Part shown: positions 12,152-57,109 of the stretch, piece after piece
Position numbering within the stretch: position 1 is the first letter of the stretch
Layout of the letters: every line of letters starts with the position of its first letter
NCBI GenBank assembly: GCA_021432655.1
Contig: MU271434.1
Location: 1 to 64,000 of the forward strand
Source of the DNA: Atractiella rhizophila
Taxonomy: Eukaryota
Length of the DNA: 64,000 nt
Direction of reading: 5' to 3'
Program-made: the position numbers and the translations under genes
Notes under the pieces: generated by a model
What the model was told of the DNA's origin: nothing
Seen by the model: the letters and a program-made list of their open reading frames with translations, nothing else
The model's database searches: none

Positions 12152-13414
12152 ATGAGCGATTCTGCTGTGCGAGAAGGAGTTGACAGCTCCTTGCAAATTA
12201 CAGTGTCTCCGTATGAAAGCGCTCTTTCAGCACCCTTAGCGTTGATATTTTCCTTCGTGGACTGGCTTCGAGGAGCCCGCTTAGCATATAGTGGTGGTCA
12301 AGATGCTTATTATCTTTTCCCAAAGAAGAGCTCCGGACGTGATGGGGTCCTTCTTGATCTCCCTAACCAACCGGACGTTTCTTCTGCTTTAAGTTTTGGA
12401 AATCTCGTTCATACGCTACTCTTGAGGATTTTATCCACTCTTGGTATTGTTGAACACGCGCCAGCAGAGGTATGCACATTTGCATCGCATGTGAATTGAG
12501 CTCAATAAGACGAACAGGTTCACACGCCTACGACTCCGCCTTCCCGCGACGAGGTAATGAAGATCCTGGAGACCGCGCCACAGTATTCTCAACGAGTCAC
12601 GCCGATATCCCAATCTTTTTGTGTGAAGATGTCAGGACTTGATTTCGAGAATGAGCGTGCCGCTTTGGAGCTCATTGCAACCAAGACAACCATTCCGGTG
12701 CCTAAAACCTACGCCACATTTTACGAACCCTTTCCTGGTCTCTCATTCGGAATCCATATACTTCTCATGGAATTCATACCCAGCAGGACGTTGGAAGATG
12801 CCTGGGAGACTCTTAGCTGGTTTTCTCGTCTACGTGTCTGGTTCACGCTTCGAAGCTATGTACGACAACTTCGACAAATTCGCCGCGACCTGCCTGGTCC
12901 TTTGGTACCGTGTAACGAATGGATCACATCCTTTTGGTCTGGGATTGAGGGTTTCAAAGGATGCGATTATCGCGAACTAATTCGGTGGCTAAACCAGCGC
13001 ATTACTGACAGTAAGCGGGGCTCTACGGTTGGGCAAATACCATATTCACCAAAAAAGTTTCCACTGGTATTCACGCACGGAGATCTCAACTGGAGAAATG
13101 TCTTGCTCACTCCAGATGGCACCATATTTTTGATCGATTGGCAAACAGCAGGGTTTTACCCATCATTTTGGGAATATGCTGGTATGGCTCGGTACCACAA
13201 CCGCAAAACGCCAAAGATCTGGCACACTTGCTCTTCCTTGATAACCGGTTACTATCCAAGGCAGAGTGACCAGCTTGTAACTGTCGATGGAGAGGTCCAG
13301 TTCTCAGCTGGCCTTACCGGTCCTACATGTTGGTTCTTCGACTCTCTGTTTCCCTGTCTTGCTGATCGAGACCTACAGACAGTGTACAAAATATGTAATT
13401 TCTTACCGGTGTAA
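12152..13414 (+). CDS. Aminoglycoside-phosphotransferase-like (APH) kinase-fold protein
   Basis: TTIPVPKTY, LLMEFIP, FTHGDLNWRNVLL, IDWQTAGFYPSFWEY; intron 12470-12518; start uncertain. Confidence 0.85.
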
Positions 13415-19932: not shown

Positions 19933-20773
19933 ATGAGGAAGTGTGAGTGCTGTTTTACTGTTAGTTATAATGAATGCTGAATGTATGGGACAGCAAAATG
20001 TCAGCTTTGTCCTACTGAGCCGTTGGAGTGGAACTGAAGTATTAGAGCAGACTACTGTGATTATTGCGACGTGTTCTTGACGCACGATTCAGCTTCAGGT
20101 GTGCTTTTCTCTCTGACTTGGGGGTCTGCTCGATGCCAATTGCCTTTTCTTTCGAAGTGCGGAAAGCGCACAATTCAGGGAGGAATCATCTCACCAACAT
20201 TAGAGACTACTATGCTTGTTCGTCCATCTCCACTCTCTCGCTCATCAAAGGTTGTCGGCTCATCGAGTATGCGAACAGCATTGGGGCACGATCAGGCACA
20301 GGACATAATCGACGCCATCACTAAGGCGTACGAGACAGGTGCTCCGCGTGGCCCTCTTCCACCACAACCTGGCCTCTTTGCACCCCCTCCACCAGGTTTA
20401 GGACCGCCTAGTAGCGGCCCTATGATTGCAGGTGGACCAGTCATGTCTTTTGGCCCACCTCCTGGATTTGGTCCTCCACCAGGCTTTGGTTCGTATCCTC
20501 TCTATTCTAACATTGGCTAACCAGTCGAAACTAGCCCCTCCCCCAATGCCTGGCCCGTCGGGTCTCGCATCCCTGCCTCCGCGTCCCAACTTCCTTCCTC
20601 CTCCTTCCATCTCCTCTGGTCCACAGCTCAACGATCCGTCCATGGGTGCAGTCCCTATGCGCCCTGGTATGCCACCCATGGACAATGGACCGCCAGCAGC
20701 ACCACAGCACGGTGGCAGTTCTACGACCGCGCATATGAATCCAGAGAGGGCGAGAGCACTTGGATTGCTGTAA
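19933..20773 (+). CDS. YHC1: U1 snRNP protein C
   Basis: Spliced [30 protein letters not shown] zinc finger, Pro-rich tail, HMNPERARALG. Confidence 0.95.
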
Positions 20774-21275
20774 TTATGTGGGCGAGAATGGCAATGCATG
20801 GTGTCTGTGTGCGTCTCCTTGGAGTGGGTAGTCCAGATATGTACTTTGCTTCAAATTTTTATCCTAATATTCTCTCATCTGTGCCCTTGGCAATGATCCG
20901 TACAAGAATCGAGCAGTCTCTTGCTTAATTTCGCCATTTTCCTGTCACGGCTGTTATCTATACTGCCTATACTATTCTCTACAAGTGAGGCTTGTTGCTT
21001 TCCGCGTTCTTGCTAAGGATAGACCAGGGTAGACAAAGAAGCAAGGCCGCCCCTTGTGCCTTAGTCATAAAGTCAAACACTAAACTCAAGAAGACTGATT
21101 ACGCTTTGACACATTGCTGTTGCCTTCCGCTTCCCTCCAAAGCGAAGCAAAGAGAAGGAACATATGGGATGGAACAACACGATCGATTTGTAGTTTCTCC
21201 TGGCTTGCATAGCGACGTCACGAAGACTTCGAGACATCTCCTACTTCACTAGTTCACCACCTGAGCAGAGCAACC

Positions 21276-24050
21276 ATGTCAACTTATGCTCCCCCCGCTC
21301 CACGCCGAGCAGGCAAGAAACTGCCAGCTCGAGCGCCAACACCAATCCTAGTCGACTCTTCAGACCTGCCAAGCAGCGAGGATGACGAAAGCGATGGAAG
21401 TGACGAGGAGGAAACGGAGGTCAAGGAGAAAGAATGGGCCGTGGGTAAATCTCTCCTAAATTTCTACACATTGTCATTCAGAACAGGACAGAGAAAATCC
21501 TGGCATACACCGACTTCGAGATACCGAAAAGGCAAATTGATGAATGGGACGAGCGTGCGAAGCTGCCTATGTCGAGAGAAGAACGCGAAGGCTGGGAACA
21601 AGACAAGCAACTAACGCAAGGTTGGACCCGATTCTACTATGTCAAATGGAGTGGCTATTCTACATCTGAGAATACATGGTCAGAGTCTCTTTTCTACGAC
21701 CGGACTTGAAATCTGCTTACCTCCCTTCTTGAACACGGTTTAGGGAAGTAGAAGAAAATGTGCATGACTGTGACCTGTATATGGATTTTCTGGGAGAGAT
21801 TGAAGCTGGCAATGCCCTAAGATTTATGCCATTCATAGATCCCAAGTTCGATTTCACGATTGACATGGAGAACACGGAACATAGGCTGTTGACATGGCCA
21901 TTGAGCTATTGGATCCAAAATAGGGAGATGTTGGTTCGCACCTCCTTTTTGGTACTGATTATCTGACTTCTATCAGCGGCCTATTGGAGATCAACTCGAA
22001 TGAATTTATGGTGAGACATTGGTGGAGATGGGTTCGACGAGGTAAGTACTGCTCGTTTCGATATAATGTTCACTTCAAGAGGTACGCAGGCTACGTAGAT
22101 TTATCGCCTGATACAATGGCCATTCTTGAACCATCAAAGTCTCAAGATGAGCAGACAGCAAAGCTAGTCAAGAAACGTAGGTGGGCGCCAGTTCAGCGAG
22201 CGAAAGGACAACCAGCCTGCACGCGTTGCCGCCGGTACGTGCCTTCGGTGAGCAGATGGTCGTGTACTTAGGTCAATGTCGTGCTGCAGCATGAAAGTGC
22301 GGTGTATAGGTGCTGATACTCCTGGCAAGGCTTGCGGTATGCAATTTTTACTTGGTGGGTACTGGTTCACTAACACCCTCGGCAGAGCGTTGTGCAAAAA
22401 AACCAGAGATCGAACATGAGTGTTCACACTATACAGATGACGCTTTTGTGGAAGACCTTGTCCATTCCCTGCAACAAGGGGAACAAACCCTTTCGCAGAA
22501 TCGTTTAGAATGCGAGAGCCAAGTGGATATTCCGGTAGCACCTGATCTCTCCTTCCCACTGCCATCACCTTCACCTTCCGCCACAGAAAACATTCATCGG
22601 GACATGGCAAGTTTGGACATGGATGTGCCTGAGCTCAACTTCGACAGTTCATCAACCCTCCCTTGGCCCAGACCCGCGAGTCTCGAACCGTCCATGGCCA
22701 CTGATATGTGGGGGAATGAATGGGATGTTGGTTTATCAGTCGCAGGTTTCGGACTCGATAACACCATGGACCAATATCGAATAGGTGACGCCGATCCGCG
22801 TTTTGGCATTGATATTCCAAGCGGAAGGTCACGAGGAGAGCTCAATTTACAGCCATCGAACTCCTCACTATTAGCGGACAACTTCCTGGATCCGAGGCTG
22901 TTCTCCAACACCGACGCGCCAACGGATAAGATCACACAACCCAAGGATGAAAGGACAGATGGTCTTCCCGGTAGACTCCACTCTTTGTCGCTCCAACCTT
23001 CAATTTCTTCTCCGCTCCACCAACAAGACCGTGTGGACTCTGAGCCAGCAGATGAATTCTACACTCCAGCTCCTGTGTCTGAGGATCAAAATCCAGATTC
23101 TGAGGAAGAGTTCGTGACGCCAAGGGCATCTCCCATACTCGAAGACAGCGGCGTTCTTCATCCATCCACCCCTTCCCACGCTTCACCCACGTCGACAAGA
23201 AGCACATCTCAGACTCCTGGCATCTCTCCAATTATGTACCGCAGAGCGCTCACACCAACTGTGATTAATAATCACGCACCGACCAAGGGTTGGTCAATGA
23301 TCTTACATCTGTCCTCCAATCTGATTCATCGACACAGATATTCGCTTATTTATGACTTGGAACGCTGCTGCAAGCGATTTAAACGCTTTCCGAGAACTCC
23401 AAAAGATTGTGGAGAGTGACGACTCGATCCAGTTTCTTCTGCATCCAGTAACCGCAGCCATTGCACGACTCTGTTTCAACCCTACTTTCTCCAATGTAGC
23501 CCCGTAATTCTGCCTTCAAGTGATAAGGTCTATGCTGACATGTGTTATCAGGGAACCTAGGATCAAGGAGCTGCACAAGGAACTGAACTACTGGTGGTTA
23601 ACAGAAGAAGCAACACGAGTGCCTGTCGAAGCTCTTTCTGCCGCGGAATGGTCGATATTTTACAACGGCGGTCAATCACCATCGAGGAACTCAGGCGCGA
23701 CCATCTTGCGTTTTTTACCGGAGAATTGCGACCTTCCAGTGGGGTTGCGGCTGCCTCACTGTACAGATTACAACGAAGCCTACGATCATGCTGTGAGGTT
23801 GGAAATGACACATATCATCGGGGATTTGAAGTCGATACAGGACGTCCTTGGGCGAGAGGCTTCGAATTACAAGTTCGTCGTGGTGGTCGCCAGGCGGAAG
23901 ATGGCAGTGGATCTGAAGAGAAAGTTCAAGGTAATGAATCAAGCCTCCTCTACATGTTGGCCTTACTGTTGATTTTGTTAGCTGGAAGCTTACACACTAT
24001 CGAACGTTCTTCAAGACCTGAGAGAGACAAATCGACGTCTGCCAAAATAG
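21276..24050 (+). CDS. Chromodomain + Zn(II)2Cys6 protein
   Basis: Chromo: WAVEKIL...YYVKWSGYSTSENTWEVEENV. Zinc cluster across two introns: ACTRCRRMKVRCIGADTPGKACERCAKKPEIEHEC. One joining intron (~21930-21976) needs a GTTGGT donor. Confidence 0.75.
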
Positions 24051-24222
24051 CCTTTGGTACATGTCTACAATGAGTAACTTAGGCTCTTGCAGAAAAATGT
24101 CAATCCATTGGGAATTCATGGGATTCTGAAAGGGTATTATTGTCCATGAGCATCGGAATAGTCAAACGCAGGCGTACAAACACTCTGGTAAAGGAAAACA
24201 AAGCGAGTTCGGACTCAAAGTG

Positions 24223-27200
24223 TCAATGATTGATGAACCCCAACAACGGATTATCCCCCCATCCCTCTCTACCTCCTCCTCTCGACGCTTCGTCCATCCT
24301 TATTACTCCCATAACCCTGCCGTTTGGTTCATGCGAAGTCGCAGCAGGCGTTGCCCTTGTAAGGAGCAAGGAATCGGTCTATCCGTCCTTCAGTCCACAA
24401 TGTCCTCAGCAGTGCTTGGAGCGATGGAGACGTACAAAATGCGCAATGTTGTCATACCCCACGCTCCCAGGCTCTTCTCTTCCCTCCCCCTCCGCAACAA
24501 TGGGTCTGGTGTCTCCTAGCTCCGCCTCCTTCTCTCGCATGAACCGTAGGACCTCCCTTCCCCTCTCCATATCTGGAGGCAAGTGATCCTCAGTCCTTCT
24601 TGCCAGTGCTCGGAGTTCGTTCGCTGGCATGAAATGTTCATCTTGGATCATGAGGGTGTAAGAGACGATGGAGGCATAGAGAGCAGCGCGTGGGAAGAGG
24701 GATGGAGAGGAAGAAGGGTGTGTTGGAGGGGAGGATGGCGTGTGGTAGATGGACAGAATCGTACCTATCAAACCAACCCAAACCAATGTAAATCAGCCAT
24801 TCTTGAGTCCAATTAAAGCGAGGAGAGGAGAGGACTAACCAGTTGCCTGTACCAACCGATCGACGTGCCACGGAGAATCGACCTTGAGTCCGCCTCCTGT
24901 CACGCTGGAGAGCCCCATTCCTCCACTGGAACCACCAACGCCCATCCCGTCCCTAGGTTCCTTGACCAAGAACGGTGCGTGGCTGTAGAGAGAGTCAGGA
25001 CATCGTTCATCTCACTCCATGACAAAACAAGAGGAATCGTACAGCAACAAAAGTGCCAACGCCGCCACGAGGCAAGCCGTTTTTCTCCTCTCTTCCCCTG
25101 CCACTTCTCCCTCCCACTTGAGCGAATTAGCCTCCATGACCTGATTAAGCTCTCCATCGATCCTCAGGACTTCAGCGTACGTTCCCCTCCTCCCTCCTGC
25201 GGCATACAAAGCCTTAATTCGACACAGGAGGGCAGAGACAATGGCCGTCGCGCGGGGATAAAAGATGTCGGTTCTTTCCCGCGCTTTCTCGTGAACTGGG
25301 ACGGGGAGGGCCGGGATGGAGGAATATGTCGGATGGAGTGACTCGTCTGGCACTATCGAGGGAGGTTTGGTTGTCGAGGAAGATGGAGAGAGAAGTAGCG
25401 TGGGTGGTTCAGCATTGTTTAGCGCCGCTGATAAACTTAAAACGTCCACATGACATCACATTGGGTTGCAGGGAGGACGAGGAGGAAGACGTACCCGCAA
25501 ATTGTGTAGAGGGAGAACCATATCACTCGCCTGTCCTGGACCTCCAATGGCTCGGCGCCAGTAGAAACTATCGCTTCGACTTCGAGAGGGTCGTAGTTCT
25601 GTTCATTCGTCCGTCATCTGCTCTTCATGCCATGAAAGGATACAGAAGGACGCACAAGCTCTAGTCTGGTTGCGAGCGAGATGACGCGCGTCGTCAACCT
25701 ACGTTTCGCGTTCTCCATCTCCTTCGTCGACAGGAGAGAGTGGTTCCAATCTATAAACCACAACGGAGGTGGGAAAACAAAAGTCAGTCGATGTTCGATC
25801 TTCAGACGACAGAAGGGGAAGGCGCACGGAACAACAGCAGCATTACGGCTTTAATGGCGTCCAATCCACCCTCCTTCCGTTCCCACCACTCTCCACCCTC
25901 TCCATCCTCCTCTGTCTCTCTCTCGTCATCGATCTCGACGATCAACCTACACGCGGCGTCGATCCACCGTTCCTCCTCCGTCCCGCCGACTGGGATGGAT
26001 CCTTGGAGGGAAGAGCGGTCGATGGAGGTCGCGATCTCCTTTCCACGCGCCAGGAGGACGAGGTAGAGGGCGAGCCAGGAAGGGGACATGGTGGATGGTG
26101 GGGAGGTCCAATAGGTGGCGTATGCTCTTCGAAACGAAGGTGGGTGGACCCTATTCGAACCACATCACAAGTCATGACGGTGATATAAGCATAACACGGT
26201 GATAGGGCATAGAGGAAGGGACAGACAGATGGAGCATATCGCCTGCAAAGAAGCTCTGGAGATACGCATCGCTACCCTCTCTCCCCGGTAACAAGGATGA
26301 CAAATCGAGGGGGTTCTCTTTCTGCATTCTGTAGCCCAAGAGCCTCTTGAAAGGGGTTGGGAGTCTGGATTTCGAATTTGGATTTGAGGTTGAATTTGGG
26401 GCAGAGGAGAGTGCAGGATGGAGGGGAAGGTCAGGAGAGGTGGAAGAGTGCGAGGGGAAGATTGAGAGGAGGTATTCGCGAGCTTGGGGTAGGAGCCAGC
26501 TCTCCTCTTTCTCCGTTCCCTCTGTCCTTCTTGCTTCTGATCCGGAGGGAAGCTTGGAGGAGAGTGTGAGGGCGTAGAGGGAGGATGGGACGTCGTCTAT
26601 TCCCTCCAACGACGGCCCACGACGTTCTCTTCGTCCTATACATCGATAATCAATTTACCATTCCACAGAGGTGAGTTAGAAGAGACGTGCCAGCTTGTAC
26701 GCCTCCTCCCAGGTGTATGGCGGTGGTGAGGGATGCAAGTTGGGACAAGTCTCTATCGAGGCGGTCGAGCTGCTGCCGAAGCTGGGAAAGGCCATCATTT
26801 GGGAAACTTGTTGCAATGTCAGCGTCTAACTCTCTCGATTGCATGCAACCAGGACACGAACAGAGGCGCGCTTCCTGTCCCGATGTTTGGTCACGTTAGA
26901 ATGTAGATTGAATTGCTCGGAATAGGTGAAAAGAGACGGACCTTCCCAATCGCATTGTTCTCCTTCTCCTCGCGACACACAGCTCATGCAAGGCTTTGTG
27001 CGAGAGCACATCATCTTTCGTTTCCTGCAACACAACCGATCAATATCATGCATATCCCATGTTGAATCAGAATACAGAAATTACAGCAAAGACATAGACT
27101 GATAGTAAACCGAAACGGCGAACACACCTGCATTGAGCACAACTCCTCAACCGCGTACTCTTGTTCTTTTTGGCCACCTGCGCCATCGCGCTGGTAGCAA

Positions 27201-28943: not shown

Positions 28944-31602
28944 ATGATTAGCGCAGCACGTCTCTTTGATCTGCGCCTCAGCTGCACAGTACGACCGAAA
29001 GCTTCAAGTTAAAGACGTGAGCTGTTCTGCGAGCTAAAGAAGCGAAGAGGCTGGATGTTCCTATGGAGAAACACAAAAAGCTGGGTCGCTTAATTACAGT
29101 AGTACTGAATGTGTCATCCAACGGATCTCTGTGAAGGTCTGAGGTGATTCTTGTAATGTCATTCTCTGTCTTCCTCCGCGACGACGACGTACGGAGATAA
29201 CTGTGATTGGTACAAGAAAAGAATATGCCATTCTCGACCATCACTTTCACGCAAGTCGCCTCGTCCTCTACTGTGAGTATGGTACTGTCAATCCGACGAG
29301 TTCATGAGCCTGAAGAGTATAGACCAGTGGAGGTTCTGTTGGGCTCGGAACGGACGCGTTTTTACTGTCTTGTGACAGTACCGACAACATGTTTCATTGT
29401 ACGCGTATTTTGACACTTACGCCAAAGACGATTTGGAGACATACAGCTCATCTGGAGCTACAGGACGTGGGCGGATGAATGTATTCCAGGGCATCCGAAG
29501 GGCCGTAACCAAACTTGAAGTATGCGAATGTGCGAATGAAGGGAGTGGAATAACAACCTCCGCCTCGGTACAGTCGCTCTGTCTGGCCGTGATTAGGACG
29601 TTGAACGAGTAGTGACACTCGCAGTGGCTGCGTTGGATTCCCACTCCGGAGGAAGCTCCATAAATCCTGTTCACTTCTTGTGATGGAATACTTGACCCAG
29701 CCCCATAAAAGCCCTGTCTCCTCTTTCAACTGGACGCTTTCGGTCTCTCGTCATTTCATTTCCACCTTTGACAACTTTGACGTTTCGTGGTTTCGCATAT
29801 ACGTAAACACTCCAGTATGGTCATGATGGAGATGGATTACCTTCGACGCATCGAACTGGGTCACTCGTCCTCGCTCGAACCTGCAATTCCAGTATCTGCG
29901 ACAATGGACCAGCTCTCGAAAGACTCAAAGGTGCTCTTTGTCGCCCCAGGGCCGATCTCCGTGTCTTCGTTAGACTACGAATATGAACACCATTCAGCGA
30001 CCAAGCAGAACAAGCTGAAGAAGGTCTCGACGGCAGCAAAGGGAAAGCGGGGACGAGGTTCAGAAGTAGAACAGGACAGAGAGGACAGGATGGCGAGGAA
30101 GAAGAAGCGATCCCATCCTCCCTCTAGCCTGAAAGCCAGGCAACCCACCGCCTCAGCGGACTCTGACACTTCATCGCACTCCAACCCATTGCATCCTACT
30201 TCGACGCCGACGACAACTAGGACGCAGGAGGACAAGGGAAACCTCTGGTCCCATACCTTGGACCGTGCCTATTCGTCATCCTCATCGTCGCAACTCTCGA
30301 TTCCGCCCGTCGCTCAAAACCACCATGCTCAACCCCAAGCTCAAGTCCATCCTCCGAGCTCCTATGTCGACGGAAAACACACTCTCGACCTTCCTGACGA
30401 CCCTTGGACCGCTTGGAGCCGTCCGACCGCGGCAGAAAGAGTGGCTCGGGATGTAATTGGAGAGCCGGGGGAACATCCTGTCCGAGATCAGATGATCAAA
30501 CGGGAAGACGCACCATTGGGAGCAGAAAATCAGAGGCGAACACCTCCAGCGAATTTGCATCACACTCAAACAGGAGGCTCTATGAACCTGCCTCCTCATC
30601 CAGCTATGGTCTGCTCCACCTCGTCGCACTATCGGTACTCAGGTTTGTCTCATTTCTCACATTCTGAAGGGAACCATTCTCAGCTCAACTGGACCTAAAG
30701 TGCCTTCTTGTCCCATCATCCCACTCCCCCCACCCCAAACGTCTCAATACCCACTGTCCGACACACCCTCCCTCCCCAATCTGTCGACAACGGGGAGTAT
30801 CCCAACCCGCTCCCTCGCGGTATACGGTGATCCAGCGACCAGGAGCTGGAACGTTGATGCCGTGTGGGACTCGAGAGCTCCCATCGTTCCGTCCCAGCCA
30901 GCCGCCTATGTACCTGCACCATCGCATGCCGCTGGACATGCCATAGGGATGGGACCGAAAGCAGGATCAGGAGTACGCGATGAGGTGAAGGCAGAAGGAA
31001 AACCAGGCCGTGGGAGAGCGTCGGGTCGGGTCGCCTCAGCTGGAAGAGGAAGGGGAAGGGGACGTTCGACTGCAATTCGAACGGATGGAGGGGAGAAGAA
31101 GCCTCGAAAGCCTCGAAAGAAACCAGAGGCTCCATCTCAATTTCAATCTGTATCCCTCCCCACGTCCACTTCGACATCTACTACCAACTCCATTATCCTT
31201 CCACCTGTCAATCAAAGCATCAAGATCGAGACTTTCAGCCTTTTCGTCCCTTCTTCCTCAGCTGCCTCGTCCTCGTCTTCCAGATCCGATGTCTCGTCCC
31301 GAGTTTCCACTCCCCTCCCCTCTCCTCGTCCCTTCTCCACTGGAGGACAGTCAGCCCAAAACTCTCGCTCGCCACAAACCTCTAATTCGCTCTCGCCCCG
31401 TAACACACCAACCCTATCAGAGGTCTCGAGGACGTCGACCCCACTGCCGAAGTCTCTGAGGCACATCATGAATGACGACCAACAACATGAGGCTGCTTCA
31501 AGCAGCCCTATAGCGGATAAAGAACTCTCAAAAGACGTCGAGCGACTCCAAGTCTCCATTTCACCTCCCACCCCGTCAGTCGTGGTGCAACCCGCCTTGT
31601 AG
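28944..31602 (+). CDS. Uncharacterised low-complexity, probably nuclear protein; 5' exons uncertain
   Basis: Long open exons 29787-30698 and 30700-31602, Ser/Pro-rich, with GRGRGRGR and KKPRKPRKK. Confidence 0.5.
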
Positions 31603-31901
31603 AATCACTCATTCTGTTTCCCTTGTTCAAGTTATTGGCTGTCGCGAATAGTTTTAGGAGTATCACAACGCATAATTCGTACAACTGTTAAAATTTGTCT
31701 CTTGTTCATACGTACCAATGTACATTATGTTGCAACCATCATATTGCACATCGCTGAAATGAAGGCTGGTGGAATCCATAACCTTTGAAAAAGATAGATA
31801 ATACAAACGAAAACTACACTCCGCACCCCGACGGCAAAGGAACAGCACTCGAAAGAAAGATCAAAAAGAGCTGAAATGAAACTCGAAGGAGAAGAAAAAT
31901 A

Positions 31902-34900
31902 TTATTCAGCCTCCCATCTTCCAGTTACCTTCCTCCAGTGAGCAGGATTCTCCACTGCCAACGCTTTCAGTTTCCTTTCTCGCTCCCACTCTTCCTCCCT
32001 GCCCGAAGGGCTCATAAATGATGCGGAAGGAAACCACGACCTCTGACCTGCCGGATGAGCGTCTTCATGCGCTTCTGTAGCGTGAGGGATAGTGATGGGG
32101 TGAGTTGGCGGGGTTGACGAGGCCGAAGCAGAATGCGGTTGAGGTTGAGATGGAGGGACATGGGAACCAGAAATTGAGCGAACTTTGGCCGAAAGCTGGT
32201 CCAAGATCTGTTTTCGACTGGTCGACATCCCAGCCAGGACTGGGGCCGGGACGACTGTGTCTTCGATCGTACTTTCTATCCTACCTGCAGGAGTCAAAAG
32301 TCGGGATGCAATTGAATTCTGCTGTGTCGCACCGTGTGCGAGGAAGGTGGAATGGATTGAGGAGTCAGACAACCCACGAGACCGAAGAGTTTGCTCTAAA
32401 AGTCTGGGACCTCCTTGTCCTGTACCTTGGCCATGTCCATCGCCGTCGATGACGGCTTTCGCGGTGGACGTGGACGCTGTGGGTAGGGTATCGGCGTTTG
32501 GAAGGACGATCCAACGATCTTGAGGCGCAGCCTTTGGACGTAGAATGCCTCCAGCGAAGATAGAGTTAAGTCGTTGAACGTCCTGAACTGTTCTCTTCAG
32601 TGTCTTCCCACCAGCAGTAACTCCGCTTTCTCCAGGTCCCCGAGAAGGAGATGTTGTTGCAGAAACGGGATCGAGGGACGCTGGATTGACGGACACAGCT
32701 CGACGAACCACTCCAGTGCTCCCAAACTCGACGTTTACCGTGGCAGGCGTGACGGCATTCGAACCCTGAAGTTTCGGCATCCGACGTCCCCCACCGAGTG
32801 GAGGCGAGCGTGTCTCTGTACGATCTGGGCTGTTGAAGTTTGAGGACGAGAAAAACCGCGAAAAAGGAGCGAGGAGACCAGGTCCGGAATGCTTCCTCTC
32901 TGGTTCTTCAGGCAGAAGGGGACGGATGATGTCGACTACTTCAGTGAGGGGAACGTCCAACTCCTTCACCTTCAATGGAACGAGAGATGGATCCAATTCG
33001 ACTTTGTTGAGTAGGACGCGTAGACGCCCCATCTCAAAAAGGAGGTCGCGCAGTAATCGAACGAGCTGCGTAAAGTCCTTACGAGAGACCAAGCTGTCCG
33101 ATTGTGATTCAGAGAGAGACGAGGCACCTTCTTTCTGGAGAGATCGCTGCTCATTCTCAATGGCTTTCCTATAGCGCGGCCGCATGTTCTCGATGTCGAC
33201 GAGCTACGAAGCATCAGCTGTGTCCACAATGAGATTCGCAGGCTTACCAGATCCCTCAACGTCATATGCGCCAGATGGCGAACATCCCCCGTCAGGTTCT
33301 GCTTCTTCAATCTTTTCTCCAGGGAGCCGATATCCGCACTCTGCAGTCTAGCTAGAAGTCTGCGGAGAAGAATCAGTCAGTCCTTGGCAGTAGAGAGAAT
33401 AACTACTTGGTCGCATGCTCCACCAAGTTGTTGAGGAGCGCCGTGCGCGAATCGGGATGGCTTCCCATCCCAGCAAGATTGTACACTGATGGTCCAGGAT
33501 TGAACGTGAAGGTATCGGTGAGGTTGGGATCCTTATTCTCTGACGTTCCGGTGGAGCGTTCTGAGATCGAAGAAGTGTATCCTCTATTAAGAGACGGAGT
33601 TGAATCGCGGACAATGTCCGTTTGAGTAGCTCGATGAACACGAATGCCATCCGCAGCCGGCGAAGGCGGGCGGGCACGCAAAGCTGGTATTTCTCGTTCG
33701 TCTGGAGCGGATCGACTAAGGGCAATACTGAGCCCGGAAGGTTGACCTGGCGGATGAGTGTGAGCGTCGGCCTGCGACTTGATGCGGAACATGCTGATGT
33801 TGGACAATTCTCTCCGATGCCTCCCTTTTCGAGCTTGCTCTTCTTCCTCCTCTCCATCCCTAGGGAGGGGCGAAAGTACCTCTTTGAGAAGCTCTTCCTG
33901 CTCCAGTAAGTCCTCCAAGTCCTCTCGCTGATGCTCCGACCGGGAGTGGCTCCGAGAGCGAGAAGGAGGCTTGCTTCCAGAATCTGGAAACGCCGCAACA
34001 GCAGGGCTAGGGAGGTCAATGCTTGATGATCCCCTCGTATGTGTTTTCCGACGCAGACTCGTTGAATTCGCGAGAGGCGGGAGGACAGGACGACGTTTGT
34101 TGGAAGAATGGTAGTGATAGTGGGTATGCTTCTCTACCTTCCTCGGTTGAGATTGAGAGGACCGTCCAGCACTGTCGTCATCACTGAACGTCGACCTGGC
34201 GGGACTCCGAAGACCTTGAAGATCGGAGAGAGCATGGACACCCCAAGGCTTGCCCGCAAAGCTCGTCGTTTTATCCGTCCCAGTAGGACTACCGACGTGC
34301 ATGCTCGTGCCTACATCGGGAGCGAGGAGGACTTCGCTCATGAGCGTCTTCCGTGCTTCTCCCACCATGCTCTCTTCGATCTCCTCCTCTTCCATCCGTT
34401 TTCGTTCCTCCATCTGAGCGTAGCGATCTCGTTCCATTTCGTCCAAAAGAAGTGAATGTTCATCGCGGGTGGTGGAGAGGAGGTTTTGGAGGTGTGTATT
34501 TTCGGTCGTCAGAGCATCATTCTCAGCCCTCAGAGAGGACAGTAGTGAAAGGAGTGACGTGACTTCTGGATTCGTCGACTTGATGTTGGGTATCTAGAAA
34601 AAAGAGTTGATTGGTATCAGCAGACCGAATAAAGGAAGTCGATATGAACACGTTAGAGAACCAGCCAAGCTAGTTAGCTCGAGTTTCGAGGTAAAGGAGC
34701 AGCAAGATGGGTCCTCCCCTCCGCTTGCACTTCGAAAACCGAATGAAAATTAATATCAGAAGGAAGCAAGCGTCATAACACGGAACGCCAAATAAATCAT
34801 GCGCTCCGTGATTCTCGCTCCCAGCCAACGAGCGGTTAGCCAACATGGCAAAAGCTGCGGGGACCAAGTCATCGCATCGACACAGTATTCCCATCAGACC

Positions 34901-36154
34901 CATCAGAAACATTTCAGATGCGAATAACGCACGAGGGGACTATTACGAGGGAATCCTTCACTATGGCGAACAAGGAAATTGAGAAAAATTGAGAAAAGGA
35001 CCGAAAATTCATTTCTCTCGTATCCTTTAGTATGCTCAAGCAAATTAATAAATGGTTCAATCAGCGGAAATATAAACGAAATATGCTAAGAGTTTGTGCC
35101 TTGCAAAATGGCCATAGGCAACATCGGGTTCACAATCTTGCCAACCCAGTCAAAACCAGAAAGGAGCTTAACTCTCCAACACAACGCCCCGATCAGGAGC
35201 TGTAGCAGCTCAACATGAAGTACCATCTTATTTTAAAGTGAGGAAACAAGAGAGACACACCTTAATAGATTCTATGCCATTCTTCTCCGCACTCCCATTC
35301 AAGTTCCCATCGACCACCCTCCCTCTCTCCTCCTCGAACCTCTCCTTCCACCTCCTCATCGCCCTCTCCGCCTTCTCCCTCTCCCTCCTCTCCACCTCAT
35401 TCCCATCGACCACCCTCCCTCTCTCCTCCTCGAACCTCTCCTTCCACCTCCTCATCGCCCTCTCCGCCTTCTCCCTCTCCCTCCTCTCCACCTCCAACTC
35501 CTTCCTCGCATCCTCTCGCTCCCTCTCCCACCCCTTCCTCTCTCCATCCCTCCTCTGTCCCTCCCTCTCCAACATCCCATTCTTCACTTTCAGACCCTCC
35601 ATTTCGGCACGCAGCTCCGCCAGCTGGTTTTCGGAGGCAGAAGCACGAGAAAGAGATGCGGACAGGGAGGTCAGGAGCTGTGCGTTGCTCGTTTGAAGCG
35701 TGGAGACTTCTTTGGTGAGAGAGGTGCGTTGGGAAAGGAGGGATTGACCGAGAGAGGCGGAGAGGTGGAGGTCTTCTTGTAGCGAGTGCAAGGTGGAGAG
35801 CAGCTCTCGACAGGAGTCACAGCTCTCGTTGATACGAATGGTCATCTCCTCACCGCTTGAACTACCGCCAATCATACTCCCACTGGTACTCCCTCCTCCT
35901 CCGTCAGCTAGAGACTCCAAATCGTCCGCCGAGCTAGAAAACAGCACCTTTCCCGGTGAAGGAGAGACCAATGATCTCGTCCTGAAGTGTCTCAACTGTC
36001 TAGCATAGTCTCTATCGTCCCCATTCGCATTGTTGTCGTCTGCAGCGTGGGAGGTGGATGAGGCGGAGGGAGACGAGGTCACGCTGAGTTGGATGGAGAA
36101 GCGAGAGGGCGTCGGAGTGCGCGGTGGGGTTGATGGACCGGGGGGTGTCTCCAT
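31902..36154 (-). CDS. Large coiled-coil protein with CC1-box-like motif
   Basis: In-frame splicing joins four exons; DLHLSASLGQSLL precedes a long coiled coil; central KLLARLQSADIGSLEKRLKKQNL.GDVRHL block. Confidence 0.8.
34594..35260 (-). ncRNA. 667-nt intron with extensive sense-strand stems (candidate structured RNA)
   Basis: GT-AG ends keep the reading frame; stems include CACGGAGCGC/GCGTTCCGTG, GGGAGCGAG/CTTGCTTCC and long-range AAGATGG/CCATCTT. Confidence 0.35.
35304..35494 (-). repeat. In-frame 96-bp tandem duplication (32 aa x2)
   Basis: EVERREREKAERAMRRWKERFEEERGRVVDGN occurs twice. Confidence 0.95.
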
Positions 36155-36841
36155 TGCGCGTACTCAGTCCGAGCAACGGCGCTGGGAGTTAATGTGCGGA
36201 ATTGGTCGTTTAGATTCGGATTGAGCATGCGCAGGATAGCGCGCGTTCGCTCAACGATCCTTCCGAAGTTGGAGGTCGAACGAAAGCGAGAGAGAGAGAG
36301 ATAGAGTCGTAGTCATAGTGAGCAAAACGGGCCATAATGGTGCGCCTTTTACTCCTTCGCTATAGACCAGGAGGAGAGAGGAAGCCCATTTGGTTGTAGT
36401 TGACGCGGCTCCTGTCGAGGAGAAAAGGAATGCAATCCAGGAATTGCGACGCAGCAATTGCAATCATCAAGAGAAATAATGGTGCTATCCGTTGAACACA
36501 GGAGTAGGCAAAGTTTGTTGGCCTATGCTCCTTTCTCCTCAGTCCAGAATTCAGTGGTCCCAGTACTGAACATATGGACATCTCGTGGAATGTTCATTCA
36601 CACAGATGCGCGAAGCTGCGGTTCTTTCTTTGTCCCCTCTATTGTGAGGGATGCTTTTCAGCACCAGTAATACAATAACACTTCTGCTGTCTTAACTCAC
36701 GATTGCGTCCGTCCTTGCTGTAATTCTTTCCCCAATGCCCTTACACTCCATCATGAAATCTTGAAGTAGACTGCTCAACGCAGTCAGCATTGTTCTCCTG
36801 CTTTGAACAAGCCATCGTTTCCCTTGTTCAATTCTGCCTGC

Positions 36842-38377
36842 ATGACAATGCCGTTTCAATCATGCCTTGACCTCCTCCTCTGGTTCCAGAACTCAACTTG
36901 TCCTTTTCTTTATTACCAAAGTGACGCTTATCCTGGTTACCAACAGTCACGCAAAGCGCCAGTTCAGGCTTGTTTTCCCTTCGAGAAGCTGCCCACGGAA
37001 CTTCAATTGGCGGTCCTGCATCAAGCTTTTGTTTTTTCTGATGGCACGTCTTCGCGGGTGCTCAAGCGCCTCAGTTTAGTTTCAAGAAAGATTCGAGCGC
37101 TCGTGGCTCCAGACCTCTTTCGCTACGTTTGCATTGGTACTTTCGACCCAACCAAATCTAGCTACGATGAGTGGTCGGCTAACATCGACGTGCTATCTCT
37201 TTCTGAGCTCTTTCGGTTTACGGAAACAGTACATCTCTACCTCCTCATCTCACATTTTGGACACGTGGGGGTAGAAGAAAAACATGGCCGACCCTTTTTC
37301 TACCTTGATCAGGAGAAGCTGGTTGGACTGGGCAAAACTTTGCAGTCGCAACTTGAACTTATTCTCTCACGTCCAGACAACCAAGTGGATTCCATCCAGA
37401 TCACCTTTTCAGAATCAGGGATGGAGCTCCTGGATGAGCGTGATGACCTTGATCTTTCTCCGTCTTTGAAGCTAATTCTACAACCTTTGAAACTCAAATC
37501 AGACGTCAATCTGTTCCTAGCTTATGATCACTCCTATGATTGCTATGTGCTCAAGGTTGCGCGTCGCAGTTTCTTCGAGACATTTCAAGCCTTACCACCT
37601 CATTTACGGATTCGATCTCTCACCCTTGAAGCATTAGAACTTTGTTATAGTAATGTTGGCCTCCCGACAAACGTCATAGTTGACGACCTCACTCTCAGCT
37701 GCAACTCTCTTCAGGATGGGTTTGATGACTTGCCCACAGTATCGCCGCTTCCTCCGCTTCAACGATTGACTATACAAACAGCCCTTTATGCTGATGAACC
37801 TTACAGCGTATATGCCTCCACTATTTTCGAAATCCTAAAGATTTGTCCAGACTCTCTAGAAGAGCTTTCACTGTGCGGACAAATACTTCCAGATCCGGAC
37901 ATCCCACTGACACCTGCAAGTCGACCTTTATTTCCATCGCGTTTACGCCGTTTGCAAGTGCTCGAACAGTTTCAACTGAGGTCTATATCTGCCCTATTGG
38001 ACCAACTTGCGGTTTACTTCTCAGCTGCACCAATCCAAGTACTTGTCCTCGATAGCGAGTCACTTCACACAATAGCCGTGAAGGAGGAAGACCATGAATT
38101 TATTCTGGATTTTTTCCGAGAAACCTTCGGAAAACAACTTTCTGACGCTGGATTCCCCTTGGATGGCCAAGACCCTGCTTCAAACATCTGGGCTTCCATT
38201 TTTCATTCGCTGGTAGAACAAAGGAAAAAAGGAGGCTGGCCAAACCTGTCTACTGTTTGTCTTGGAAGATCTGCAGGGGATCTAGCGAGGCAGGGAATTC
38301 TTAAGATTGACAGCTCTCGTGCGCTGCTGACAGCGAATGGACTTGCTTTATGCGACGTGAAGGAGGAGAGATTGTGA
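36842..38377 (+). CDS. F-box-like protein with LRR-like C-terminus (paralog A)
   Basis: FPFEKLPTELQLAVL..LKRLSLVSRKIRALVAPDLFR; uninterrupted ORF; start uncertain. Confidence 0.8.
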   Translation: MTMPFQSCLDLLLWFQNSTCPFLYYQSDAYPGYQQSRKAPVQACFPFEKLPTELQLAVLHQAFVFSDGTSSRVLKRLSLVSRKIRALVAPDLFRYVCIGTFDPTKSSYDEWSANIDVLSLSELFRFTETVHLYLLISHFGHVGVEEKHGRPFFYLDQEKLVGLGKTLQSQLELILSRPDNQVDSIQITFSESGMELLDERDDLDLSPSLKLILQPLKLKSDVNLFLAYDHSYDCYVLKVARRSFFETFQALPPHLRIRSLTLEALELCYSNVGLPTNVIVDDLTLSCNSLQDGFDDLPTVSPLPPLQRLTIQTALYADEPYSVYASTIFEILKICPDSLEELSLCGQILPDPDIPLTPASRPLFPSRLRRLQVLEQFQLRSISALLDQLAVYFSAAPIQVLVLDSESLHTIAVKEEDHEFILDFFRETFGKQLSDAGFPLDGQDPASNIWASIFHSLVEQRKKGGWPNLSTVCLGRSAGDLARQGILKIDSSRALLTANGLALCDVKEERL

Positions 38378-38671
38378 TCGTCTGAGGGATCCACTCGCAT
38401 ACAATACCATTTAGTTTCCAACGCACAGTCCGCGCACAACGAAAAAAATCCTTGACTGGTAATTCTGGACGGTTCAAACGTAGATCCTATTAACGCTCAA
38501 TACTAGCGTCAATCTGCGTTAGAAAGTGCAGGAGCCAGCGTGCTCTCAGGTTCGTTACTAAAATGTGTTAGGAAACTAAAAGGAAAAATGTTCGATGAGA
38601 TTTCATTCCACCTATCGATATAATTAACATCCAATTCTACAGCACTAGTTCTTCTTGCCTAGTTGAGTTAT

Positions 38672-39330
38672 CAGTCTCCTTCAAGTTCCCATCCCCATTC
38701 TTATTGTCGTCAGCGCCGAGCCCCCTGGGAAGGAGGCTTGGAGAACCTTACACGGAGAAAGGCAGTCTGTGTAAATAATCGGAGTATCGAGGGTAAACGG
38801 TAGGCGATCCGGTGATGGGATTAAGATACAGGATCCGGCTGGTGGGTTTCATACTACTTGAGCAGGGGTGAGACTGTCTGCGCTATGCCGCCGTGGCGCG
38901 GTGAAGCCAAGAGCCAATGGAGTGTTATTTAGTCAAGAAAGAGGCGGCAAATATTGCAATGCAGGATTGCCAGAAGAAGGCAATGCAGTAATCAGAAAAT
39001 AACGGTGACGGGAGAGCTTCATTGGCATCGCACGCGAAATCCAGAACGTAACAATCCAGTTGTTCAGCAATGAGTAGTGAATATGCACTATTTTCTTTCA
39101 TCTTTAGCCTGTGTGAGAGCATGAGCTCTCTGGTTCACTCGGTCCCCCTCCATTCTACACTTAGGGTTAGGGTCATATTCTGGTTCCACAGCGATTTGAC
39201 CACCATCCGCTGTGGACCAGGTAGGGAGTTCATTGCATTGTATGAGAGCGATTTGACCACCATCCGCTGTGGACCAGGTCCAGCGCACAGCCTGAAGGAG
39301 GGAGCGGCTGTACTTCACTACTACCTTGCC
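38672..39330 (+). ncRNA. Candidate highly structured non-coding element
   Basis: Many nested stems with G-U wobbles on the + strand; no credible ORF; contains TTAGGGTTAGGGT at 39161-39173. Confidence 0.45.
39190..39279 (+). repeat. 33-bp identical direct repeat, 24-bp spacer
   Basis: AGCGATTTGACCACCATCCGCTGTGGACCAGGT at 39190 and 39247. Confidence 0.95.
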
Positions 39331-39751
39331 TGATGCTTCACGGAAAGTTGTACATTCTCAATTGCCTGTCAAGCGGCATGCAGTAAACGAACAATTTAGT
39401 CATTTTCATTAGTTCACAAGAGAGCAAGCACCCTTCAATCCATTTTTTATTCCGTAGACATCAGATCTTCTAGCTAACGATCTGATGGGACTGACCTTTC
39501 ATCGTGGATGGAGTGGAGCAGAAAATAAACGGCACGGTAATAACGAGAAGTTGCCTCTAGGCAGGTGGTGATCGACTCTGGGTGATGGACATTTACGCAT
39601 TCCCATTTCTCACTTCCTATGTCATTTTGGTCTTGTGACTTTTCTCTTTCCTTTTCTCCTTCTTCTATTGCTTGATAATTGGCTCAGGGAACGGCGACGG
39701 GCTACGGTGATATTTTCTCACACATATGCAAGACCCCTGCAGTGCGAGTCC

Positions 39752-39844
39752 CATCGCTTTTGTGGCTCACATTTGCAGGTAAAGTTATTTCTCTTAAGTA
39801 ACAATGAAATGTATTCTCATCGCTTTTGTGGCTCGCATTTGCAG
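39752..39844 (+). repeat. 27-bp direct repeat (1 mismatch), 39-bp spacer
   Basis: CATCGCTTTTGTGGCTC(A/G)CATTTGCAG at 39752 and 39818. Confidence 0.95.
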
Positions 39845-40115
39845 TGCTTACAGATCCGTATCTCGTCACTGGGTGCTGCTCAGAATCCACTTCATGAGCT
39901 GTATTTTCATCTGAAGGCCAGGCAACTTCAATCGGGAAGTCAGCTCGACCCGACGGCATCAGCACTATTTGAAAGTGACCATGTCCCAATAGGTAAATTT
40001 TGTCGAACTACAAGCACTCAGCCTCAGCAACTGTCCTGCACCAACTCTTCCCATTTGACACTCAGTATATCTCTATATTAAAGAGGGCATATGAACTCAT
40101 CTTTCCAAACAGGTA

Positions 40116-41528
40116 ATGGTCCACAAACCGCGAGGTGCACATTGTTTTGCCTTCGAGAGGCTACACCCAGAACTCCAACTAGCGATTGTAAAAATAGTTT
40201 TTGAATCGTTTTCTGGCGAGCCGTTCTCAAGAGAGCTCAAATCTTTCAGTTCGACGTCAAGGAAGGTCCGAGCGCTCACAGTTCCATACCTTTTCCGTCG
40301 CATCGTCATTGCTACTTTCGAACCCAACTACTTTGCTGGTTTGCCCGTTAATGACAAGTTATCTCTTCCTAAACTCTTTCGCTTTACACGAACAGTGCAT
40401 CTCCGCCTAAATATCTCACATTTCGGAAACGAATGGGTTGAGGAAGAAAGTGGTCATTCCTTTTTCCACCTCGAAGCAGAGAAGCTTGTAGGACTTGGCA
40501 AGGCCATTCAATCGTCGTTTGAATTCGTTCTCTCAGTTCCTGACAACCAGGTGGACTCCATCCATATCAGCTTTTCGGAATCAGAAGCTGAACCTGACTC
40601 TGAAATTGATCTTCTTCCAGCATTGAAGCTAATTCTGCACCCTTTGGAACTTAAATCGGAGATCGATCTTTCTATCAATCATTCACATTATCAATACTGG
40701 AATACTCCTGAGGAGGCACGTCGCAACTTCAGCCAGACTTTTCAAGCCTTACCATCTCAATTAAGGATCCGATCTCTCAAGCTTGAAGCAGTAGCGCTCT
40801 GCCACAGTGACGTCGGTGTTCCAACGGATGCTGTCATTGACAGCCTCACTCTTAGCTGTGGCACTTTTAATCCTCCGTACATCGACTGGCCTTCAACACA
40901 CCTTCCACCAATCAAAGAATTGACCATACTAACCTCGTTTACTTCCAAAGTGCATATTTCTCAGGTTTTCGCAATCTTGAGGGTTTGTCCGTCCTGTTTA
41001 GAAGTGCTTTCGATACGTGGTCAAATACTCTCTGATTTGGCGACAATTCCACAGGCACCTTCAAATCCTCCACGTCTACTTTTGCCTTTATTATATTTAC
41101 GCCGTTTGGAATTGCTCGAACAATTTGGATTCAGTCGTGATTTTGTCCCGCTCGACCAACTTATGAAATGCTTCTCAGCTGGACCAATTCAGATTCTTGT
41201 CCTCGACAGTCAATCGCTTCACACAATTGCCCTGAAAGAGCAAGGCTATGAAGGCATTCTGAGACTTTCTCAAGAGTCCTTTGGTCAGCGACTTTTGAAG
41301 ACCGGATTTTTCTTTGATGGATCGGATGGTGTTTCCAATGCGTGGGCTCTCCTTTTACATTCGCTTCTGCAACAAAGGAACAAAGGAGGGTGGTCGAATC
41401 TTTCAACTGTTTGTCTTGGCACTTATACACGAGAGCTAATAGCACGAGGGATTGTTACGGTGGACAACCCTCGGTCGCTCCTGGCAGAGAACGGGATAGC
41501 TCTACGTTTGCAGGGGGAAAGCATGTGA
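40116..41528 (+). CDS. F-box-like protein with LRR-like C-terminus (paralog B)
   Basis: FAFERLHPELQLAIV; collinear with 36842-38377 (EKLVGLGK, PDNQVDSI, KGGW.NLSTVCLG). Confidence 0.85.
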   Translation: MVHKPRGAHCFAFERLHPELQLAIVKIVFESFSGEPFSRELKSFSSTSRKVRALTVPYLFRRIVIATFEPNYFAGLPVNDKLSLPKLFRFTRTVHLRLNISHFGNEWVEEESGHSFFHLEAEKLVGLGKAIQSSFEFVLSVPDNQVDSIHISFSESEAEPDSEIDLLPALKLILHPLELKSEIDLSINHSHYQYWNTPEEARRNFSQTFQALPSQLRIRSLKLEAVALCHSDVGVPTDAVIDSLTLSCGTFNPPYIDWPSTHLPPIKELTILTSFTSKVHISQVFAILRVCPSCLEVLSIRGQILSDLATIPQAPSNPPRLLLPLLYLRRLELLEQFGFSRDFVPLDQLMKCFSAGPIQILVLDSQSLHTIALKEQGYEGILRLSQESFGQRLLKTGFFFDGSDGVSNAWALLLHSLLQQRNKGGWSNLSTVCLGTYTRELIARGIVTVDNPRSLLAENGIALRLQGESM

Positions 41529-52759: not shown

Positions 52760-53048
52760 TGGGTTGGATCAGTTTAACTTCTGTGATAAGCTATAGCAGG
52801 CAAAGGGTTGCATTACATCATCGTTATTTGTTCTGAAGTTATAACGGGAACACATGTATTAACATTGTCCAATGAGGACCACTGAATAGGGTTCAAACCG
52901 ACTGAACCCTATCTCAGTCGGTGGTACGTACCGCTTGCTCGCATTCCTCCAAAAGCGACAATACTTGCTTGAACTCGATTGGGCTTCTGGTTCACACTTT
53001 CAGCACAACTCTTGCTTCTTCAGAACGAAAAACCTCTTACAGCGGATA

Positions 53049-55728: not shown

Positions 55729-55852
55729 TCTGTGCATGATTTCTTGAAATGGTGCTGTTTAGTTTTGTATACTCAGTGATTGAATGCTTGTGTTTCTCTT
55801 TGTCAACAGATATGCGATTTACAAATACATTGCATGCTCTTTCATGAGTTGA

Positions 55853-57109
55853 TTATACATCGTCATCAGCGTGTGTGTAGAATCGTCTGAACGCACTGAT
55901 CACAATGCCTCGTGCCGTCCACCAAGCCTTATGCTCTGCAAATTCTTCAAGACTACAATCGAACACTTTCAATTGTTTCCAACGACGGCTGCACACAAAA
56001 TCCTTGACATGTTCCAGAAAATTCTCCTCTGTTGACGTTATCGTTTGGTCTCGACGAGGTATATAGTTCAAATGGGATATTGGAGAGTGTTCGAACAGAT
56101 GAGCAGTCCCAACGTCAAGAGCACAACGGTGTAAGAAAAGCATTTGCAAGTTCGGGAACGCGATGTTGCTTGCTTTTGCCCATTCGGCGGAAGGAAAGCG
56201 AAGATGAATATTTAGAAGCGCAAGAGCTTTCAAGTTTTCCGCTATGGGAAGGAAAATAGAAATACAGGTTTCCAGCGGACGGGAAGGCTGTTGGAACGGC
56301 GCATAAAGACCAAAAGACGAGACTGAAGAAGGAACCACTGGATTTAGAAACGGTGGGAAATATTCGTCTCGCACGTAGTCCTGCCAATAATGTACACAGA
56401 GAGTTTCGAGGTTGTTGAACGAGCTGAACCCAGTCTCGAGCACCTGCGGATTCACAAGGTCCGTGACGAGGTATAGTTTTTTGGCTGATAAGAAGCAACG
56501 TAGGGTACAAGGTAACATTAGCTGACGAGGTCCAAGGTTCGTCAAGGTCAAACGGATAGTGAGCCTCTCGGCAGAAGGGACAGTCCCAATGAGACGGAGG
56601 CAACGAAACTGCTGCTCTAACATACTTGCGTCTTCCTCGAAAGCGGCGGCATTGCGACACTCGAAAAGTAGCTCTTCCAGCGCGCACCTCCCTCTCTCAA
56701 CCACAGAATGGTGATAGCAAGTCCAAAACTGTTCAAGATAGTTCCACAGGAATCCGACAACATGGCGGTCCGTCATTTCTTCTGTTTCGCCTTGATCCCA
56801 GCCTCCATTATGCCACGTTACTTTTCGACCTTCGATGATGATGGATACCCTTTTGACGGAGGATGCAAAGGACCATGGGAAAGTTTCCAGTGGAAGCAAA
56901 TGATGAGGCGATTTTCGAGGCTTGGGAGCATATTTGTTGGCGTGCGAAGAAAAGTTGAGAGATTCGAATAAAGCTGGGAGTGAGAGAGCGCGGAGGAGTC
57001 GTGACGTTATGGATAAAGTGAGTAAGGTTGGCTTGTAAGATAGCGCGGGGAGGTGAGAAATTACTTCGGCCTGGAGTTCGGGAGGGAGCTCGTAAAATGG
57101 GAAGTGCAT
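55853..57109 (-). CDS. F-box-like/LRR-like protein (distant paralog C)
   Basis: FPFYELPPELQAEVISHL..LLTLSITSRLLRALSLPALF; single 418-aa ORF. Confidence 0.8.
   Translation of the reverse strand: MHFPFYELPPELQAEVISHLPALSYKPTLLTLSITSRLLRALSLPALFESLNFSSHANKYAPKPRKSPHHLLPLETFPWSFASSVKRVSIIIEGRKVTWHNGGWDQGETEEMTDRHVVGFLWNYLEQFWTCYHHSVVERGRCALEELLFECRNAAAFEEDASMLEQQFRCLRLIGTVPSAERLTIRLTLTNLGPRQLMLPCTLRCFLSAKKLYLVTDLVNPQVLETGFSSFNNLETLCVHYWQDYVRDEYFPPFLNPVVPSSVSSFGLYAPFQQPSRPLETCISIFLPIAENLKALALLNIHLRFPSAEWAKASNIAFPNLQMLFLHRCALDVGTAHLFEHSPISHLNYIPRRDQTITSTEENFLEHVKDFVCSRRWKQLKVFDCSLEEFAEHKAWWTARGIVISAFRRFYTHADDDV

Follow-up and report, generated by a model that had tools for sequence, protein, structure and literature searches.

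A spliced gene of Atractiella rhizophila that joins a chromodomain to a Zn2Cys6 cluster

In the root-dwelling fungus Atractiella rhizophila (Pucciniomycotina) a spliced gene joins a chromodomain to a Zn2Cys6 cluster. It lies in a window of 64,000 nt (assembly GCA_021432655.1, contig MU271434.1, positions 1 to 64,000), the whole stretch of DNA that was analyzed, to which all coordinates refer. Both domains, about 105 residues apart, are encoded in one open frame of a genuine, transcribed gene; seven of its introns are seen to be spliced, and the motifs are intact. The protein represents a new combination of two known domains plus one or two domains of unassigned family. How fungi choose the sequences that carry H3K9 methylation, and what sets the limits of silencing, is understood only in part; AT-rich regions recruit the methyltransferase complex of Neurospora by an unknown mechanism, in the account of one review (PMC10246852). 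By pairing a heterochromatin reader with a domain of the family that fungi use most for sequence-specific DNA binding, the protein is a candidate for sequence-directed targeting in the Pucciniomycotina, and may thus recognize certain DNA sequences within silenced chromatin or along its borders. The weight of the finding is limited: this is a single-species orphan from a non-model fungus, each domain is well known alone, and the rarity of the pairing is unproven.

Gene Structure and Splicing

21276-24050, + strand: whole gene, 10 coding exons, 771 aa; ATG at 21276, stop codon ending at 24050
21276-21444, 21492-21678, 21744-21929, 21977-22041, 22090-22234, + strand: exons 1 to 5
22290-22336, 22386-23288, 23338-23503, 23552-23930, 23982-24050, + strand: exons 6 to 10
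21930-21976, + strand: intron 3, joint 21929 to 21977 in run X7, in-frame donor at 21930

Removal of nine GT-AG introns, each of 47-65 nt, leaves an open frame of 771 aa that is letter for letter identical to NCBI KAH8920106.1 (hypothetical protein BT69DRAFT_1336745, A. rhizophila; label P0001). With exon 9 as the query this protein alone was returned, and its protein cluster has one member. Splicing and variants were read from contigs of four of the seven sequencing runs listed, which cannot prove a single transcript; run X7, whose library type is not on record, may be connected with the data from which the NCBI model was derived. Seven of the nine introns (2, 3, 5, 6, 7, 8, and 9) are absent from the X7 contigs and hence spliced, with one differing letter at the joint of intron 6, and introns 1 and 4 have no entry in the joint table. 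Runs X5 (intron 7) and X3 (intron 9) each give one near-identical joint, weak in view of short sides of 18 and 21 letters.

The junction near 21930-21976, flagged for checking in an earlier note on this DNA, is spliced in the X7 contigs with the donor that keeps the frame; the other donor of intron 3, at 21934, would end the protein at 190 aa. Beyond this intron no stop codon interrupts the frame before the zinc cluster, with intron 4 removed or kept (787 aa if kept), so that translation of a transcript for the chromodomain alone would meet no stop ahead of the cluster. Intron 4 itself (22042-22089) is 48 nt long, with no in-frame stop and no clear branch motif, and its retention would add 16 aa between the domains.

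The Chromodomain

21276-21422, + strand: N-terminus (aa 1-49), low-complexity, basic then strongly acidic
21423-21804, + strand: HP1-type chromodomain (aa 50-139) in exons 1 to 3, from Pfam, PDB matches, and profile alignment
21435-21437, 21647-21649, and 21656-21658, + strand: cage residues W54, W109, and Y112, by alignment
21668-21670, + strand: acidic residue E116, by alignment
21506-21604, + strand: acidic insertion of about 33 aa (aa 62-94) between strands 1 and 2, predicted helical

Chromodomains bind methyl-lysine. The match to PF00385 (33.5 bits) lies above the Pfam gathering cut-off of 25.1, and the closest PDB matches by sequence search are HP1/CBX chromodomains. The intact three-aromatic cage that had been claimed for this domain is present by alignment. 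A global alignment to a profile of 121 chromodomains (hhalign, probability 98%) places strand 1 at aa 50-61 and the rest of the domain at aa 101-139, separated by a gap of 33 columns; an insertion of about 40 aa had been proposed earlier, and on this alignment it is present and measures about 33 aa rather than 40. Insertions at the same loop are known from CHD1-type chromodomains. Two helices (69-79 and 85-103) form the top-scored region of an otherwise poor structure model, and the net charge is -6 for the chromodomain core and -5 for the insertion.

Glu53 directly precedes the first cage aromatic, and in the alignment to the PDB matches a polar residue, His126, next to D127, stands opposite the Asp of HP1 that we take to be its lower "finger." HP1-class and Polycomb-class chromodomains are told apart by an acidic surface and polar fingers, as described by Kaustov et al. 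(PMC3013012), features which this domain matches loosely, with His rather than Asp as the lower finger. Together, Glu53, the polar His126, and the core charge favor an HP1-class chromodomain, which is predicted to read H3K9me. Which mark is read does not follow from an intact cage, since some chromodomains with cages bind weakly or take non-histone peptides (Kaustov et al., PMC3013012). Peptides could be kept out of the groove by the insertion of about 33 aa, a matter that both structure models (mean pLDDT 36 and 40) are too poor to judge.

The Aromatic Segment and the Zn2Cys6 Cluster

21817-22127, + strand: Trp/aromatic-rich segment (aa 144-215), 12 aromatics, 5 Trp in 72 aa
22170-22184, + strand: basic KKRRW stretch (aa 230-234) ahead of the cluster, from sequence
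22218-22423, + strand: Zn2Cys6 cluster (C246-C279), spacing 2-6-9-2-9, split by introns 5 and 6
22235-22289 and 22337-22385, + strand: introns 5 and 6, which interrupt the cluster, both spliced in the X7 contigs

The aromatic segment is probably folded and matches no Pfam family. Aligned to a two-sequence chromo-shadow profile, aa 140-228 score -1.3 bits, a value reached by 682 of 2000 shuffles, and Pfam gives no chromo-shadow match (PF01393) in the protein, a search that a very divergent shadow could escape. The KKRRW stretch may serve in nuclear localization or in contact with the DNA backbone.

Zn2Cys6 domains share the consensus C-x2-C-x6-C-x5-12-C-x2-C-x6-9-C and bind CGG-type DNA sites. 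The spacing from C246 to C279 (C-x2-C-x6-C-x9-C-x2-C-x9-C) fits this consensus, with all six cysteines present and a basic first loop, CTRCRRMKVRC, in which K253 presumably corresponds to the base-contacting lysine of Gal4. Without splicing, none of the six reading frames across the window contains the pattern, which bears out the earlier description of a complete cluster, split by two introns, that becomes visible only after splicing. The match to PF00172 (18.1 bits, E 0.0029) falls just under the gathering cut-off of 21, and in the PDB search HAP1 structures match the cluster at E 0.44-0.49 only. Pairing with an MHD is the commonest domain combination of the Zn2Cys6 family (PMC10141177), most described members of which are gene regulators (PMC5415576, PMC10141177); here Pfam gives no Fungal_trans/MHD match anywhere in the full protein.

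The Linker and the C-terminal Domain

22517-23284, + strand: acidic Pro/Ser/Thr-rich linker (aa 311-566), disordered, with no structure in the model
23285-24047, + strand: C-terminal globular-looking domain (aa 567-771, 205 aa), with an Atlas lead to a PIN-like alpha/beta fold

The long acidic linker that had been described is found at aa 311-566, a low-complexity stretch with a net charge of -22 and scattered hydrophobic residues. The C-terminal domain matches no Pfam family, PDB entry, or homologue. In the Atlas, on its own low-confidence model (pLDDT 0.41), PIN clusters occupy rows 1, 3, and 6 of 10 with the three best TM values (0.47, 0.45, and 0.44), above an unnamed viral cluster (TM 0.41) and Rossmann-type folds (0.31-0.38); purpose-made structure models were too poor for fold searches. 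Against profiles built from 49 prokaryotic PIN domains, this domain scored no better than shuffles. A PIN-like fold for these 205 aa is accordingly a doubtful, model-based proposal, if one worth keeping in sight. Active PIN nucleases carry three or four acidic catalytic residues at strand ends. Judged by eye, there being no reliable alignment, the order of strands suits a PIN fold, and the candidate strands FMTWN, FLLHP, and FVVVV lack the usual Asp/Glu, so that any PIN fold here may be catalytically dead.

Sequence Variation

Coding differences listed for X7 number 18 and fall in 17 codons, 10 of them amino-acid-changing and 7 silent, and none lies in codons 7-286, which span both domains. 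These counts are descriptive, as the variants are clustered and differences close to the ends of contigs do not appear in the variant table. A half-depth X7 allele carries five amino-acid changes in residues 287-303, the helix after the cluster, one of them to proline, which argues against an essential dimer coil of the Gal4 type. The distribution hints at constraint on the chromodomain and the cluster but not on the dimer helix. Directly behind the cluster, at 22447-22598, lies a dense block of X7 allelic differences, mostly amino-acid-changing.

In runs X1 and X3 together, six of the seven differing codons are amino-acid-changing and lie in the C-terminal domain; together with the 10 changed against 7 silent codons of X7, this could reflect either weak constraint or rapid adaptive change. 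Run X3 contains near-identical pieces and also a contig (23817-24023) that differs from exon 9 in 16 of 111 letters, an identity of about 86%, and shares the donor of intron 9, with an acceptor 7 nt further on. This contig hints at a diverged copy or paralogue, or at a sister lineage; the protein collections searched hold no counterpart of it.

Relatives and Comparison with Known Systems

No orthologue was found in the protein collections searched, and by these searches the protein is an orphan without detectable orthologues. All 42 other phmmer matches are tandem-chromodomain proteins without a Zn_clus domain. In a calibration the search would report one of 121 artificial proteins made of a chromodomain and a foreign zinc cluster, and its outcome therefore says "orphan" and not "unique architecture." No paper among the literature matches listed describes a fusion of a chromodomain with a Zn2Cys6 cluster; the main text of a survey of fungal transcription factors, whose combinations are of DNA-binding domains only, contains no word that begins with "chromo" (PMC5415576).

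On the tests made, the protein appears to lie outside the HP1, Chp1, and CeGAL families. It resembles HP1, Swi6, and CBX1, 3, and 5, its closest PDB matches, in the three-aromatic cage, the acidic surface, and the Glu of the upper finger, and differs from them in its 33-aa insertion, its own DNA-binding cluster, its length of 771 aa, and the missing match to a chromo-shadow domain. GAL4-like Zn2Cys6-MHD factors (CeGAL) share the six-Cys cluster, the basic first loop, and the basic stretch ahead of it; unlike in these factors, the cluster here is internal, behind a chromodomain, with no MHD match and a polymorphic helix after it.

An N-terminal chromodomain such as that of Chp1 in the RITS core is found here by both Pfam and PDB searches, and Schizosaccharomyces pombe Chp1 (RITS) and TASOR/MPP8 (HUSH) are similar to the present protein in having an N-terminal chromodomain of the H3K9me type, a long linker, and a folded C-terminal domain. 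RITS has Chp1 as its chromodomain subunit, with SPOC and DomII/PIN at the C-terminal end; TASOR likewise ends in DomII/PIN, and the description of Chp1 includes no zinc cluster (bioRxiv 10.1101/2020.03.09.974832). For the C-terminal domain of the present protein, structure comparison points weakly to PIN (Atlas TM 0.44-0.47); in contrast to Chp1, Pfam gives no SPOC match, and the PIN lead is without sequence-profile support. PDB entries of Chp1 match the query protein through the chromodomain only.

In Neurospora, DMM-2 carries a Zn2Cys6 domain, and DMM, which includes a JmjC subunit, is linked to HP1. Compared by description only, the present protein would resemble that system in coupling recognition of H3K9me to a zinc cluster at the borders of heterochromatin; in Neurospora these functions, and that of the JmjC subunit, are distributed over separate proteins acting in trans. 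DMM-1 and DMM-2 are reported to limit spreading from heterochromatin (PMC5144970).

Proposed Function and Alternatives

The protein may be a lineage-restricted nuclear adaptor that needs both H3K9-methylated nucleosomes and a CGG-type site, a reading held tentatively and at slightly less than even confidence. Such a two-signal adaptor could have arisen by domain shuffling. Its chromodomain would bind methyl-lysine, most likely H3K9me2/3, and its zinc cluster would bind a short element of the CGG type known for the family. This DNA contact is probably weak and may involve a monomer, the chromodomain serving as the second anchor. The protein would then stay only where the DNA motif lies in or beside H3K9-methylated nucleosomes, as in transposon copies or at heterochromatin edges, and there the acidic linker and the C-terminal domain would recruit partners. 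Support comes from the open frame and its splicing, the cage, the HP1-class features, the six cysteines and basic first loop, the lack of an MHD match, the DMM proteins as a precedent in trans, and, weakly, the lack of variants in codons 7-286; against it stand the lack of orthologue conservation, the score of the cluster below the Pfam cut-off, the insertion that could block the groove, the excess of amino-acid-changing variants, and the cage's failure to define the mark. A part in targeting heterochromatin or in setting its boundaries may reasonably be proposed for the protein. Because of the analogy with Chp1 we lean toward a role in silencing or genome defense over an activating one, the direction of the effect being the weakest step.

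Fungal activation regions are acidic with scattered hydrophobic residues, and acidic disordered linkers are common in silencing factors as well. A linker with these properties (net charge -22), the prevalence of gene regulators among described Zn2Cys6 proteins (PMC5415576, PMC10141177), and the existence in fungi of a boundary function of the DMM type (PMC5144970) would suit a transcriptional activator or anti-silencing boundary factor, in which the cluster picks promoters, the linker activates, and the chromodomain permits work in or at the border of silent chromatin, or else reads H3K27me or H3K4me. This we consider unlikely, though a serious alternative: Pfam finds no MHD, linkers of this kind do not single out activators, and the HP1-class features point to K9 rather than K27 (PMC3013012). 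Far less probable is a misjoining by gene prediction of two adjacent genes, or of chromodomain-only and zinc-cluster-only transcripts. The contigs cannot show one transcript, Met212 (22116) could start an isoform lacking the chromodomain, and the NCBI model, perhaps drawn from the same RNA data, is not necessarily independent, but intron 3 is spliced in frame and the frame runs open into the cluster in either state of intron 4.

The orphan status in the collections searched, the high share of amino-acid-changing variants outside both domains, and one Atlas row that is a basidiomycete Chromo + SH3_Tf2-1 cluster (TM 0.24) could also mark a young chimera, partly transposon-derived (a chromovirus chromodomain, an element-borne zinc-cluster gene, or both), with little function or with one domain in use. 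In a chromovirus the chromodomain forms the end of an integrase that has no introns, in an element bounded by LTRs. Here, unlike in chromoviral (Ty3/gypsy) integrases, introns lie inside the chromodomain, and neither integrase nor terminal repeats lie nearby: none of the 140 frames (at least 105 aa) elsewhere in the window matches a transposon family in Pfam, and no terminal repeats were seen in 20700-24500. Two introns in the chromodomain and two in the cluster, unlike a recently retroposed piece, and the position of both domains on one strand speak against recent capture, and every cage residue and cysteine is intact. A young or partly idle chimera of this kind appears improbable, and an old ancestry from a transposable element is possible.

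A more ambitious form of the adaptor reading would unite zinc cluster, H3K9me reader, and dead PIN-like RNA-handling domain in one polypeptide, a self-contained counterpart of Chp1/HUSH in which a DNA motif and not small RNA picks the targets, nucleating or bounding heterochromatin at particular transposon families; we regard this as a long shot. Since a CGG site contains a CpG, such a protein could in addition respond to CpG methylation, a mark of transposons in basidiomycetes. In basidiomycetes 5mC is described as mainly CpG and concentrated in transposon-rich regions (PMC13297926), a prevalence that makes methylation-sensitive binding a testable extension.

Genomic Surroundings

24300-27200 (approximate), - strand: convergent neighboring Zn2Cys6 gene, cluster at about 27140-26950, with a 103-nt intron and spacing 2-6-5-2-8

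The U1-C gene lies directly upstream, and Pfam matches among the 140 frames elsewhere in the window are to housekeeping genes (Tim10 finger, pyruvate-dehydrogenase-kinase type, mitochondrial carrier, thiolase, Ham1, histone deacetylase, and Sec10). Between U1-C and the gene, at 20983-21052, X7 has 21 other letters in place of 68 nt, a strain difference. The downstream neighbor carries an N-terminal Zn2Cys6 cluster (Pfam E 0.0012) and was rejected as a recent source of the cluster, since it scores -3.4 bits against KAH8920106.1 and its intron lies one codon earlier. An X7 contig spans exon 7 into the spliced 3' part of this neighbor, and the 3' ends of the two convergent genes may overlap.

Several long frames without a Pfam match at E 0.001 occur at 29781-41525 and 52007-57127, for example 36770-38374 (535 aa) and 40095-41525 (477 aa) and, on the minus strand, 31905-33203 (433 aa) and 55856-57127 (424 aa). 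At 12509-13411 a 301-aa frame without stops encodes an APH-family phosphotransferase domain.
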